A stretch of 61,775 bases of DNA, counting the filler. It is 5 parts of 5 records of this genome, joined end to end, with 100 filler letters (N's around TTAATTAATTAA, not from the genome) between each part and the next. Parts side by side here need not be neighbours in the genome. Positions count along the whole stretch, not along the records: positions 47,916 to 55,940 come from SRR31156797_1934; 4 more parts are not named here. One strand, written 5' to 3'. Both the position numbers and the translations under genes were made by a program. Shown in pieces: positions 38,350 to 49,511 of this stretch. Under the pieces are notes generated by a model, which worked only from the letters and a program-made list of their open reading frames with translations, was not told where the DNA came from and did no database searches. Positions within the stretch are counted from its first letter, which is position 1. Each line of letters opens with the position of its first letter.

Positions 38350-38859
38350 ATGGCAAAAATTACTCTAATAACAGGAGGGCAACGTTCCGGGAAAAGCGCA
38401 TATGCGCAAAATGAAGCGCTAAAAAGAAGTCCAAAGCCTGTTTATTTAGCTACCTCAAGAATTTGGGATAAAGAGCACGAAAAACGCATTGAAAGGCATA
38501 AAGCAGATAGAGATAACAGATGGGAAAATATAGAAGAAGAGAAATACTTATCCAGGCATGATTTTAAAGGAAAAGTAGTTTTAATTGACTGTATTACTTT
38601 ATGGCTTACCAATTTTTACTTTGATAACAATAGTCATATTGAAAAGTCTTTAGATGAAGCCAAAGATGAATTTACAAAACTTGTAGAACAAGATGCTGAA
38701 TTTATTATTGTAACCAATGAAATTGGTCTTGGCGGTATGCCAGAAAATGAGATACAACGTAAATTCACTGATCTGCAAGGCTGGATGAATCAACACATTG
38801 CTCGACAAGCACAAGAAGTTATATTAATGGTTAGCGGAATCCCTTTGAAAGTAAAATAA
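38350..38859 (+). CDS. cobU: Adenosylcobinamide kinase/phosphate guanylyltransferase
   Basis: GGQRSGKS, RIERHK, DCITLW, VTNEIG. Confidence 0.96.
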   Translation: MAKITLITGGQRSGKSAYAQNEALKRSPKPVYLATSRIWDKEHEKRIERHKADRDNRWENIEEEKYLSRHDFKGKVVLIDCITLWLTNFYFDNNSHIEKSLDEAKDEFTKLVEQDAEFIIVTNEIGLGGMPENEIQRKFTDLQGWMNQHIARQAQEVILMVSGIPLKVK

Positions 38860-47815: not shown

Positions 47816-47915
47816 NNNNNNNNNNNNNNNNNNNNNNNNNNNNNNNNNNNNNNNNNNNNTTAATTAATTAANNNNNNNNNNNNNNNNNNNNNNNNNNNNN
47901 NNNNNNNNNNNNNNN
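47816..47915. other. Artificial contig linker
   Basis: N44-TTAATTAATTAA-N44. Confidence 0.99.
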
Positions 47916-48010: not shown

Positions 48011-48111
48011 TTTATTTATGCCGGGAATCCTTTGTTTCTCAAAAAAAATCGCTCCTCCCAGTACAGGAGAAACGATAAAAAGAAGAACACTTAACTTAAA
48101 TACACAATCTA

Positions 48112-48834
48112 TTATTCTTCACTGACTACTTCCTTTTTGGCTTTTCTGCGATTTTTAACCGTGTTGTTATTGGTTTCAATTATTTTATCTATCGTTAGGT
48201 ATATATCACCATATACCTGTGGTTGCACTTGATTCATAGCGGTCAGGTATACCAGTAACTGGTCGTTGATGATTTTAACCACCTCTTTTTTAATATCCGA
48301 AGCACTCTTTAACTGCGCTTCTATCGACGATTGTTTTTCATACTCCAGGCGTGTCTGTTCAAAATCGGTCTGTGCCGCCTGTAAACTTTCGCACATAGCC
48401 CCACAACCCGGAATCTGAGTCAATGCCGTCTGAATACTCCCCTCCTGAAAATCTCTTAACAAAGCATTAATCAAAGACGATTCTGATGCATACGTTTCAC
48501 TTGCAATACCTACCCCATAACGATCGAAAACCGCTTTTACTTTCATAGCTGCTTCTTGAATAACAGTGTCCGGATGTAGCACAAAACCCATCAATAAGTA
48601 ATGAATCCCTTTTACCAGGTTGTCTCTTACATCATCTTTTTCGGCCAATACCGATTCATACTTCGATCGCTTAATGGCATCGGATAATTGGGTATTCTGC
48701 TGCTCAAGGGCAGTAAACACACCACTTAAATAAGCATCTTCGCTTAGGTTGGCTTGTTGATAAGCTGAAATAATTCGGGCTGTTGTCGCATTAATTTCTG
48801 TAGTGCGACTGTAATAACCTAATTTGTTAATCAT
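48112..48834 (-). CDS. DUF6261-like helical protein
   Basis: 240 aa, predicted all-helical; LAEKDDVRD, VFDRYG, YASESSLINALL, IIETNN and a basic tail are typical of Bacteroidota DUF6261. Confidence 0.75.
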   Translation of the reverse strand: MINKLGYYSRTTEINATTARIISAYQQANLSEDAYLSGVFTALEQQNTQLSDAIKRSKYESVLAEKDDVRDNLVKGIHYLLMGFVLHPDTVIQEAAMKVKAVFDRYGVGIASETYASESSLINALLRDFQEGSIQTALTQIPGCGAMCESLQAAQTDFEQTRLEYEKQSSIEAQLKSASDIKKEVVKIINDQLLVYLTAMNQVQPQVYGDIYLTIDKIIETNNNTVKNRRKAKKEVVSEE

Positions 48835-48893
48835 GTTACTAATGTTTAAAGATTTATATTTGACCCTAAGGCCGTAGATTTCATAAGACTGGC

Positions 48894-49156
48894 TTTTACA
48901 GATGTAAAAACCTTGGTTTCAATTTAGATTCGTCTTTTACAGACATAAAATGCTCCCCCCGGAAAAATTGGCTCTTTTTACAAGTATAATTACCACCCCT
49001 TTTTATAAAACAGACTTTTTACGCGTGTAAAAAATAAAGCTTTATGAAGTTTGAGCATTTTACAGTCGTAATTTTGTCATCTGTTTTACGAAATGAGCTT
49101 TTTACGAGTGTAAAAGCATAAGCTTTTTTTAAAGCGAGCTTTTTACAAGCATAAAA
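48894..49156. repeat. Non-coding array of 7 palindromic TTTTAC-N4-RTAAWW motifs at 41-42 bp period
   Basis: Cores start at 48894, 48935, 48976, 49017, 49058, 49100 and 49141; intervening 25-26 nt differ. Confidence 0.9.
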
Positions 49157-49346
49157 GCCTCAATTATTATCAACATCAAATTACGTTTGTACAAAACACG
49201 ATTCACTAAAAAACATACGGGGATTATACAAGGTTATCCAGAAGAAAAGAAAAAACTCATAGCCTAAGGTTTGGGGTTTCACTACTTAATTATATCTCAC
49301 TATTCAAGATAATAAGAGAACGTAGTTTTTATCAAAATTTAAGCGT

Positions 49347-49511
49347 GACAAAAGCGTGACAAATCACTTTTGTTTGTTTTTCAATAGGTTACAGAGGTGC
49401 TTTTTTTATGATTTATGGGCGATTCGCTATTTGCCATTAGCCAAAAATGATTCGAGAGTGAGGTTTTGTAGTGTAAAAATTAGATAAATCTAGAACAAAA
49501 AAAGCGAACTG
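49347..49511. repeat. ~165-bp imperfect direct repeat, copy A
   Basis: Shares GACAAAAGCGTGACA, AAAAATGATTCGA, TGTAAAAATTAGATA and AAAGCGAACTG in order with 50258-50420. Confidence 0.85.

Follow-up and report, generated by a model that had tools for sequence, protein, structure and literature searches.

Results

A DUF6261 gene preceded by an array of palindromes

The stretch of DNA analysed here (the window; 61,775 nucleotides, five parts joined end to end with filler between them) carries on its minus strand, at 48112-48834, an open reading frame (ORF) for a 240-residue protein (P0001) of the DUF6261 family, and upstream of this gene lies an array of regularly spaced palindromes at 48894-49156. 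The product of 48112-48834 matches Pfam PF19775 (DUF6261) over residues 63-206 (E 5e-19; 69.2 bits against a cut-off of 27), in agreement with the original prediction, which was made from the sequence alone and had placed seven palindromic cores before a DUF6261-like gene, the nearest of them 60 bp from its ATG. Coordinates, spacings and this distance all hold in the sequence, and the observation is confirmed as real and not an artefact. The cores, each 16 bp long, lie at 48894-48909, 48935-48950, 48976-48991, 49017-49032, 49058-49073, 49100-49115 and 49141-49156 on the minus strand, and follow one another at intervals of 41, 41, 41, 41, 42 and 41 bp.

The seven cores at 48894-49156 have the pattern TTTTACnnnnRTAA. 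Read on the gene strand, the units take the form TTTTAYnnnnGTAAAA, with a right arm, GTAAAA, that is invariant in every unit, a left arm that reads TTTTAC, TTTTAT, AATTAC or AATTAT, and sense-strand A-tracts in the middle of the spacers. Across the window, the pattern TTTTACNNNNRTAA has 11 strand-hits against 0.56 expected, a number reached by none of 100 shuffles; ten of these fall in the array and the remaining one, at 38614, is unrelated. An eighth, in-phase perfect dyad, TTTGTACAAA, is present at 49186-49195, 42 bp past the seventh core. An autocorrelation scan of the whole window at 40-43 bp returned no array other than this one, which Tandem Repeats Finder (score 30) missed and which a repeat-family search recovered as families at 41/83 spacing.

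A tail of 59 nt (48835-48893, minus strand) separates the array from the ATG. On the 3′ side of the gene, a terminator-like hairpin (48048-48076, minus strand), with a 13-pair stem followed by a T-run, suggests that the gene forms a monocistronic unit. Directly upstream of the array, a conserved block at 49225-49375, possibly a promoter or regulatory region, contains a -33/-7-like pair together with an exact tandem repeat, AAGCGTGACAA x2, at 49341-49362. This block is single-copy in the 5.7-Mb genome of the nearest relative (G001), except for its first ~30 nt, which recur at two other places there.

The array is a hypervariable island between close strains

Compared with locus L001, whose protein is 97% identical to that of the window (seven differences, G6I among them), the array stands out as a hypervariable island within an otherwise well-conserved region. 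The flanks match G001 at 96-97% for 3.7 kb on each side of the locus, and homology to L001 on the 3′ side of the gene stops just past the terminator-like hairpin, at 48040. The gene differs from that of L001 at 23 of 723 nt (7 of 88 at four-fold degenerate sites), the 72 nt after the stop codon are identical at 71 positions, and the block upstream of the array, taken over a slightly longer stretch (alignment columns 31-225), at 183 of 193 (94.8%). The array itself is identical at just 155 of 292 positions (53%) and the diverged tail at 31 of 50 aligned positions.

This divergence leaves the architecture intact. Unit number and register are the same in the two strains despite 47% array divergence, with spacings, read towards the gene, of 41, 42, 41, 41, 41 and 41 bp in the window and 41, 42, 41, 41, 42 and 41 bp in L001, where a unit corresponding to the distal dyad at 49186-49195 is also found. 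The palindrome has changed in all seven units, from TTTTAC/GTAAAA in the window to TTGCAC/GTGCAA in L001, at two inner positions of both arms, and orthologous spacers are more similar to one another than are non-orthologous ones (0.50 vs 0.36). A contig from sequencing run X1 matches the window at 48040-48858 and 49225-49375 (one other letter in the 151 nt of the latter), the intervening 366 nt being replaced by 373 other letters; since this run may be the relative's own sample, the contig is not independent of L001.

At another locus, L123, the array (about 720-1110) is mixed: its five proximal units are of a new type and its distal units have other palindromes, one of them of the type found at locus L020. 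This mixture suggests a turnover of the arrays, with new units arising and old ones being lost.

Arrays accompany DUF6261 genes across three phyla

Using an alignment of 12 homologues, we collected 33 genome loci from Prolixibacteraceae, Ignavibacteria/Melioribacteraceae and Treponema, of which 31 were usable and two had too little upstream sequence. In 30 of the 31, 5-mer autocorrelation over the 600 nt upstream of the gene peaked at a lag of 40-42 or 82-84, and in the 31st (L017) lag 41 ranked second. At lag 40-43 these upstream windows scored 11-125, against a median of 2, a 95th percentile of 5.6 and a maximum of 15 for 229 other 600-nt windows of the same loci. A metagenome scan with a single protein as query returned no loci; with the alignment it returned 43 further loci, and the array signal was found in 32 of the 35 usable ones; of the three misses, two were partial matches and one had only 300 nt of upstream DNA (L120, L140 and L145, which have no upstream DNA, were left out of the count). 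Among nine more distant members, drawn from other genomes and a Riemerella record, the array is clear in five, weak in two and absent in two. The pairing of array and DUF6261 gene is therefore a family rule across three phyla. As the original prediction had supposed, no description of the pairing was found in the literature searched, where the listed matches to 41-bp or palindromic tandem repeats were judged by title or abstract; in that literature, DUF6261 appears only in table entries, namely a Streptococcus oralis variant list and a Streptococcus agalactiae pan-genome association.

The family comprises 2306 representative clusters at E <= 0.001 (alignment of relatives). Its distribution is patchy, with matches above cut-off in five of 301 sampled genomes of the phylum, G001 counted, and it is rare among plasmids and phages: tblastn gave a match in one of 72,556 plasmid records, and phage records gave one weak fragment. 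The plasmid record (L097; NZ_CP072187.1 62845-69486) has mnmG and ybeY beside the gene and is more chromosome-like than plasmid backbone.

The arrays share their geometry more than their sequence. Centre-to-centre spacings of the palindromes (n = 117) are 41 bp in 76 cases, 42 bp in 31, 43 bp in six and 40 bp in four, with a mean of 41.33 bp, and the ~41-bp period is held across Bacteroidota, Ignavibacteria and Treponema despite differing sequences. B-DNA has ~10.5 bp per turn, so that 41.33 bp is close to four turns. Within an array, one palindrome is common to the units and the spacers differ between units. What had been noticed in the window as a weaker central T-run/A-run of the intervals proves to be real and family-wide in the form of a sense-strand A-tract: over 38 loci, 50-59% of units have a tract of at least four A bases at positions -20 to -17 relative to the palindrome centre, and 36% have one at -16, compared with T-tracts at the same offsets in at most 6%. 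In many arrays, CAAAAAGTGGAGC precedes the palindrome.

Locus L014 has its array 410-606 nt from the gene. Between the two (about 2600-2990) lie two copies of a ~100-nt element, each containing ...TCCGAAGGAATGAGATATCTT..., which looks like a small mobile insertion that has pushed the array upstream.

Paralogues and gene-less arrays in a single genome

G001 contains ten DUF6261 matches, and eight of these have an upstream array, six clear and two (L035 and L040) degenerate by eye. Of the other two, L038 has a 41-bp array of the ATTGCAAnnnTGCAAT type directly after its stop codon (about 1990-2200, reverse-complement coordinates) and L041 has no array. The palindromes are locus-specific even among these paralogues, and each array is single-copy. 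The paralogues with degenerate arrays look broken (L040, G001:C1 around 4047544-4047978; L035, around 3178620-3179087), as if gene and array decayed together; the stop codon in L040 falls exactly at position 8 of the N-terminal arm described below.

Two arrays in G001 have no DUF6261 gene, L054 (eight units) and L067 (three units). The former, at 1417-1720 of its locus (G001:C1, about 3971785-3972090), has a 41-bp period and the window's own palindrome type, TTTTACnnnnGTAAAA, with unrelated spacers; tblastn found no DUF6261 gene beside it, and it lies ~300 nt upstream of a divergent ORF of 369 aa. In an evenly spaced 800-kb sample of G001, we found one DUF6261-linked array and one three-unit array without the gene. 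Two further candidates were rejected: a 42-lag hit in the EF-G gene, where the signal is coding sequence, and a second apparent array at L034, which is a 7-bp microsatellite, (AAGTATA)n, of ~15 units (about 2813-2917, reverse-complement coordinates) that mimics a 42-bp lag. Other intergenic arrays in G001 have a 21-bp period (L066 10200-10420, L095 5690-5990, L080 3520-3790 and L093 15600-15830), with ACAAAGTCATT-type units at two loci and ACACCTA-type units, and form a class separate from the 41-42-bp arrays.

These counts bear on whether the array could be a minisatellite without function, or a piece of a mobile repeat comparable to the 41-nt Repeat C of MITE464/MITEPgRS, that lies near the gene by chance. 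Tandem 41-nt repeats do occur in that element of Porphyromonas gingivalis (PMC2575886, PMC4596501), and both the gene-less arrays of G001 and the strong array difference between strains would suit such an origin. We nevertheless regard it as very improbable, given the tie to one gene family across three phyla, the scarcity of arrays in the 800-kb sample (just the one linked array and the one three-unit array without a gene), the identical unit number and register in two strains at 47% divergence, the conservation of palindromes while spacers decay, and the covariation with the protein reported below.

The array is better explained as duplex DNA than as RNA

The original prediction offered two models for the array, one in which it is transcribed and processed into guide-like RNAs in the manner of CRISPR or TIGR arrays, and one in which it provides helically phased DNA sites for the adjacent protein. 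Among 1239 stem positions, mismatches that would be of the G:U type number 58 on the sense strand (G:T) and 65 on the antisense strand (A:C); because these figures are symmetric, neither strand has the surplus of wobble pairs that selection for an RNA hairpin would be expected to leave. The stems of the window array have 6 bp, five of them A:T pairs, and about two of the seven unit hairpins are present in the centroid fold of the sense RNA. Relative to shuffles, the RNA folds with z -3.4 in sense and -2.3 in antisense, and Rfam returned nothing near thresholds for this stretch.

An array acting as RNA, whether as a source of guide-like small RNAs from tandem hairpins or as a 5′ leader bound for translational feedback, would be in keeping with the better-than-shuffled sense fold. 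The polarity of the A-tract (A in 50-59% of units, T in at most 6%) would likewise be compatible with a function tied to one strand at the RNA level, and the -33/-7-like pair that we read upstream of the array in the window and L001 makes a long leader possible. We think such a role improbable all the same: mismatches are symmetric (58 vs 65), Rfam has no match, and only ~2/7 hairpins appear in the centroid fold; stems are conserved and the loops of the window array variable, which suits groove reading of duplex DNA; the ~four-turn period persists across phyla; the L038 array is downstream of its gene; a GTAA[AC]TT[GA] box lies between array and gene at 11 of 20 loci; and the spacers carry a shared motif and do not look like unique sequences of foreign origin. 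The guide-array model finds no support, given the lack of a G:U excess, stems that are mostly absent from RNA folds, intervals that carry an A-tract and the downstream array at L038. The phased-site model is supported, with its ~four-turn period over three phyla, the pairing in relatives and the covariation of residues 6-8 all pointing towards it. The fixed period, the conserved stems with variable centres in the window array and the placement of the arrays at L038 and L014 would together fit duplex DNA better than RNA.

The position of the array relative to the promoter may differ between loci. A TAnnTT box is near-invariant in sixteen Prolixibacteraceae-type loci. Among the 20 relative loci scanned, 11 have a GTAA[AC]TT[GA] box that separates array from gene, lying at -86 to -103. 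This box resembles the Bacteroidota -7 element and, if read as a promoter, would place the array upstream of the promoter at those 11 loci. In the window and L001, where the tail is ~60 nt and the -33/-7-like pair is upstream of the array, the array would lie inside the leader. The window does have TAAATTG (sense) at -92 (48920-48926, minus strand), in the spacer between the two proximal cores, which resembles the -86 to -103 box of the relatives; here it may be a chance likeness, and the motif is not conserved in L001. A scan for sigma-70-type promoters was uninformative (8 sites vs 6.0 expected).

Residues 6-8 of the protein covary with the palindrome

DUF6261 proteins begin with the consensus M-I-x-K-L-x-x-x-S-R-x-T-E, with K4, R10 and E13 as conserved residues and positions 3, 6, 7, 8 and 11 as variable ones; among 148 family representatives, N, K, Q and R predominate at residue 8. 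Close pairs of proteins with different palindromes all differ within residues 2-15, as seen for window/L001 (97% identity), L020/L123 (95.7%), L107/L109 (86%), L129/L133 (83%) and L111/L114 (81.5%), while these residues are unchanged in two close pairs that share a palindrome, L019/L021 and L021/L115.

DNA context for the covariation and pairing analyses was available for about 75 loci. The covariation set comprised 40 loci, 11 without a clear palindrome consensus and seven near-duplicates having been dropped beforehand, and two of its consensus cores were set by hand. In a partial Mantel test, identity at residues 6-8 was correlated with palindrome similarity given residues 20-230 (r 0.38, reached by none of 5000 permutations; N = 40). 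The reverse test, for the rest of the protein given the arm, yielded a partial r of 0.13, reached by 9 of 2000 permutations. Without the two hand-set cores the partial r was 0.37, and it was 0.40 both for the genome set alone (N = 22) and for the metagenome set alone (N = 16), with none of 2000 permutations reaching the value in any of the three. When 235 positions were scanned singly, the highest value belonged to residue 8 (0.30), followed by residue 7 (0.20), with residue 6 in fourth place (0.16) and one outsider, position 179, at 0.17; position 3, which is closer to the array than residues 6-8, scored 0.09.

Control sets of residues gave partial r values of 0.04 (positions 15, 16 and 18), 0.06 (19, 23 and 26) and 0.15 (3, 11 and 14). 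For the DNA before the ATG the values were 0.055 (last 30 nt) and 0.052 (last 60 nt), and for synonymous identity in codons 2-16 the value was 0.024, the tail control being noisy as an ungapped alignment and the synonymous control noisy with at most nine codons. Since the tail and synonymous controls are near zero, the signal is not accounted for by physical linkage between the array and the 5′ part of the gene. K55N, K58N and N72K, which distinguish the window protein from that of L001 and lie on one helix face, were considered as specificity residues and rejected (family-wide partial r -0.03).

The pair L020/L123, whose proteins are 95.7% identical, shows the association most sharply. The palindrome changes from TGACTaaacAGTCA to TTATCaaatGATAA, and within the 51 nt of the arm region, which encode Met, Gly and residues 1-15, five codon changes are non-synonymous (S3N, T6A, T7I, T8N and I14A) and one is synonymous, against four non-synonymous and 16 synonymous changes in the rest of the gene (Fisher p 0.0097), with the 88 nt between array and ATG differing at only three positions. 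A single recombination tract carrying array and N-terminus together is ruled out as the general cause by this pair and by the tail and synonymous controls; such a tract is possible for window/L001, where the tail and the first 18 codons have also diverged.

Particular residues recur with particular palindromes. Lys8 is found with TGGCA..TGCCA (L005, L011, L024 and L135), Gln8 with TGGA(C/G)G (L002, L007, L109 and L131), Met-Thr-Asn at 6-8 with TCATTAnnTAATGA (L016, L122 and L107), and Ile6 together with Tyr8 or Trp8 with TTGCACnnnnGTGCAA (TTGCAC), both in L001 and in the only ~40%-identical L126/L127. Taken across relatives, the comparisons suggest that three residues near the start of DUF6261 proteins, 6-8, read the palindromes. 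In the window, the proposed specificity-determining part of the N-terminal arm is Gly-Tyr-Tyr, encoded at 48811-48819 (minus strand) and flanked by the conserved K4, R10 and E13. We take the covariation as evidence, new here, that the adjacent protein may itself be the palindrome reader and that protein and sites would be co-evolving rapidly.

The predicted fold matches generic helical bundles

The AlphaFold2 model of the protein (predicted local distance difference test, pLDDT, 89.6) is all-helical after a non-helical segment at residues 1-10, with nine helices, the first two spanning residues 11-27 and 34-84. Foldseek against the PDB gave a best E value of 0.03, and VIA wide reached at best Z 10.5, for generic four-helix bundles, below the helical noise mark of ~13, so that structural matches are to generic helical bundles only. 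No recognisable DNA-binding domain was found in the protein with Pfam, NCBIfam, PHROGs, PADLOC or a PDB sequence search: NCBIfam and PADLOC gave no match, PHROGs a single hit (E 0.026) to a family of unknown function, and the PDB sequence profile no match below E 0.2 (best E 0.21). The best named hit in the Protein Atlas, at 0.82, is a lead only. A profile of the N-terminal 50 residues (43 members) had no Pfam ribbon-helix-helix hit and, in the PDB, gave only Phd at E 1.1. Homodimer prediction scored 0.22 against a mark of 0.32. Given fold and domain searches without a DNA-binding match, the proposed reading of DNA rests on the covariation and not on the fold.

One alternative is that another factor, or DNA structure such as cruciforms or bending, makes use of the palindromes, DUF6261 being merely the regulated gene and the covariation indirect or an artefact. 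The lack of a detectable DNA-binding fold and the existence of arrays without the gene favour this view, and phased A-tracts curve DNA intrinsically, with no need of a protein. But because palindromes are locus-specific even within a single genome, this view would call for about ten separate, unlinked binders in G001, and a constraint on structure alone would not keep one palindrome sequence through all the units of an array. Nor would the alternative account for a covariation that is specific to residues 6-8, is replicated in two data sets and survives linkage controls, or for the focusing of non-synonymous change in the arm in L020/L123. We hold this alternative to be unlikely.

Genes around the locus

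Genes next to the DUF6261 gene, where the domain scan covered eight ORFs, are metabolic and unrelated to it: Rce1-like, radical-SAM activase, PFL-like and oxaloacetate-decarboxylase-type subunits. Stretches of N at 47816-47859 and 47872-47915, just downstream of the terminator, are filler between joined parts. The oxaloacetate-decarboxylase-type operon to their left maps 2 Mb away in G001, and we read a synteny break there.

This setting matters for a further possibility, in which DUF6261 does bind the array but for a purpose other than transcription, the array being a centromere-like or chromosome-organising handle, or a tag of incompatibility or identity that serves to position, pair or mark DNA, as in sopC-SopB and parC-ParR. 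The resemblance to a centromere array, with tandem ~41-43-bp units each bearing a 16-bp palindrome, is close; the L038 array follows the stop codon as sopC follows sopB, and the L014 array stands 410-606 nt from its gene; and specificity switches fast between strains, as expected of incompatibility determinants. On the other hand, no NTPase of the ParA, ParM or TubZ type adjoins the gene among the eight ORFs scanned, the neighbours being metabolic, and the loci are chromosomal, with about ten in one genome and a match in only 1/72,556 plasmid records, there with housekeeping genes. We regard such a purpose as unlikely, if somewhat less so than the use of the palindromes by another factor.

Discussion

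With better than even confidence, we propose that the array is a set of phased DNA docking sites that would be read by the N-terminal arm of the adjacent DUF6261 protein itself. The array, its period, its pairing with the gene, its hypervariability and the covariation of residues and palindrome are observed, whereas binding, dimer formation, contacts by the arm, cooperativity and autoregulation are all inferred, from comparison of sequences. DUF6261, probably in dimeric form, would recognise each 16-bp palindrome in duplex DNA, with the short arm M-I-x-K-L-x-x-x-S-R-x-T-E as the reading element; K4 and R10 would hold the DNA backbone, and the variable residues 6-8 would choose the half-site sequence. 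The 41-42-bp repeat of about four turns, together with the phased A-tracts, would set seven or eight protein units on one face of curved DNA, where they could contact one another and assemble into a higher-order complex next to the region that controls the gene. Most economically, this would lead to cooperative control of the gene's own transcription, and fast co-evolution of protein and sites would give each paralogue and strain a private specificity.

Several of the observations above weigh against this proposal. The protein has no recognisable DNA-binding domain and its structural matches stay at the level of generic bundles; residues 1-10 (pLDDT 86) may be packed on the bundle in the model and not free. 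L038 has its array behind the gene, L041 has none, and L054 and L067 are arrays without a gene. On the statistical side, Mantel-type tests can be inflated by shared ancestry, two of the linkage controls are noisy, position 179 intrudes into the position scan, and L108 and L136 form a counter-example, both having I-S-T at residues 6-8 with a core similarity of just 0.42. The A-tract polarity, too, has its RNA-level reading.

Taken together, the docking-site reading and its evidence describe what is likely an undescribed, fast-evolving DNA-recognition module. A bolder extension, which we offer tentatively and think doubtful as a whole, is that DUF6261 founds an unrecognised class of re-programmable DNA readers, in which a three-residue patch in a ten-residue arm sets the half-site, the ~240-residue length acts as a ruler for 41-42 bp, and up to ten orthogonal pairs per genome switch under diversifying selection, implying a role in conflict or self-identity and not in housekeeping regulation.

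If the docking-site proposal is true, an uncharacterised family of ~2300 clusters gains a testable activity, namely that it binds its own phased palindrome array in a sequence-specific manner through residues that can be named, and a new DNA-binding architecture has been missed by current domain and fold searches. The family would offer natural orthogonal protein-site pairs with an apparent residue-to-base correspondence, in which regulator and sites co-evolve so fast that strains with 96-97% identity already differ. Widespread 41-42-bp minisatellites in the genomes of Bacteroidota, Ignavibacteria and spirochaetes would be accounted for as well.

Comparison with known systems

CRISPR and TIGR-Tas arrays share with the DUF6261 arrays regularly spaced short palindromic repeats and intervals that differ; a CRISPR array combines near-identical repeats with unique spacers of foreign origin and cas genes, and in TIGR-Tas, a Nop-domain Tas protein is found beside an array of dual-spacer units. 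The DUF6261 arrays differ from both in their fixed 40-43-bp period, their shared A-tract, the absence of wobble asymmetry and the imperfection of repeats within an array. No Cas domain was found in the eight neighbouring ORFs scanned, and no Cas-like or Nop-domain match in the DUF6261 protein. Plasmid iterons are direct repeats of ~17-22 bp beside the rep gene at an origin; here, by contrast, the period is 41-42 bp, there is no Rep-like neighbour among the ORFs scanned and the context is chromosomal.

Ribbon-helix-helix proteins provide another comparison. ParR at parC (type II partition), ParG, omega and Arc/MetJ are binders of centromeres or operators, built on an N-terminal β-strand and two helices, whose sites have a period of 7-11 bp. 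In the DUF6261 model, the N-terminus would likewise read DNA and be followed by helices, with iterated sites upstream of the protein's own gene; cooperative assembly and autoregulation would be expected, and the order of predicted elements (1-10, 11-27 and from 34) is compatible with this. The DUF6261 protein is set apart from these binders by the lack of a sequence match, by the 41-42-bp period, by a long C-terminal helical bundle and by the absence of a partner NTPase.

Among repeats of similar length, the nearest published case is MITE464/MITEPgRS of P. gingivalis, which has a tandem 41-nt Repeat C that is intergenic and of variable copy number. Its arrays belong to a transposable element that has ISPg1-type terminal repeats and Repeat A/B flanks around the 41-nt units, one sequence being present in about 20 copies (PMC2575886, PMC4596501). 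Compared by description, the DUF6261 arrays are distinct in being single-copy, locus-specific and tied to a protein family.

In architecture, and in architecture only, there is a likeness to sopC-SopB. The DUF6261 array, whose seven or eight 41-42-bp units each contain one 16-bp palindrome, resembles sopC of plasmid F, where tandem direct units of ~43 bp, each with a 16-bp inverted repeat, lie beside the SopB gene in a type Ia partition system. Unlike sopABC and ParABS, the DUF6261 locus shows no ParB/SopB or helix-turn-helix match and no adjacent gene for a ParA/SopA ATPase; and unlike sopC-SopB, it is chromosomal and belongs to a set of ~10 loci per genome, each with its own palindrome and with the array usually upstream of the gene.

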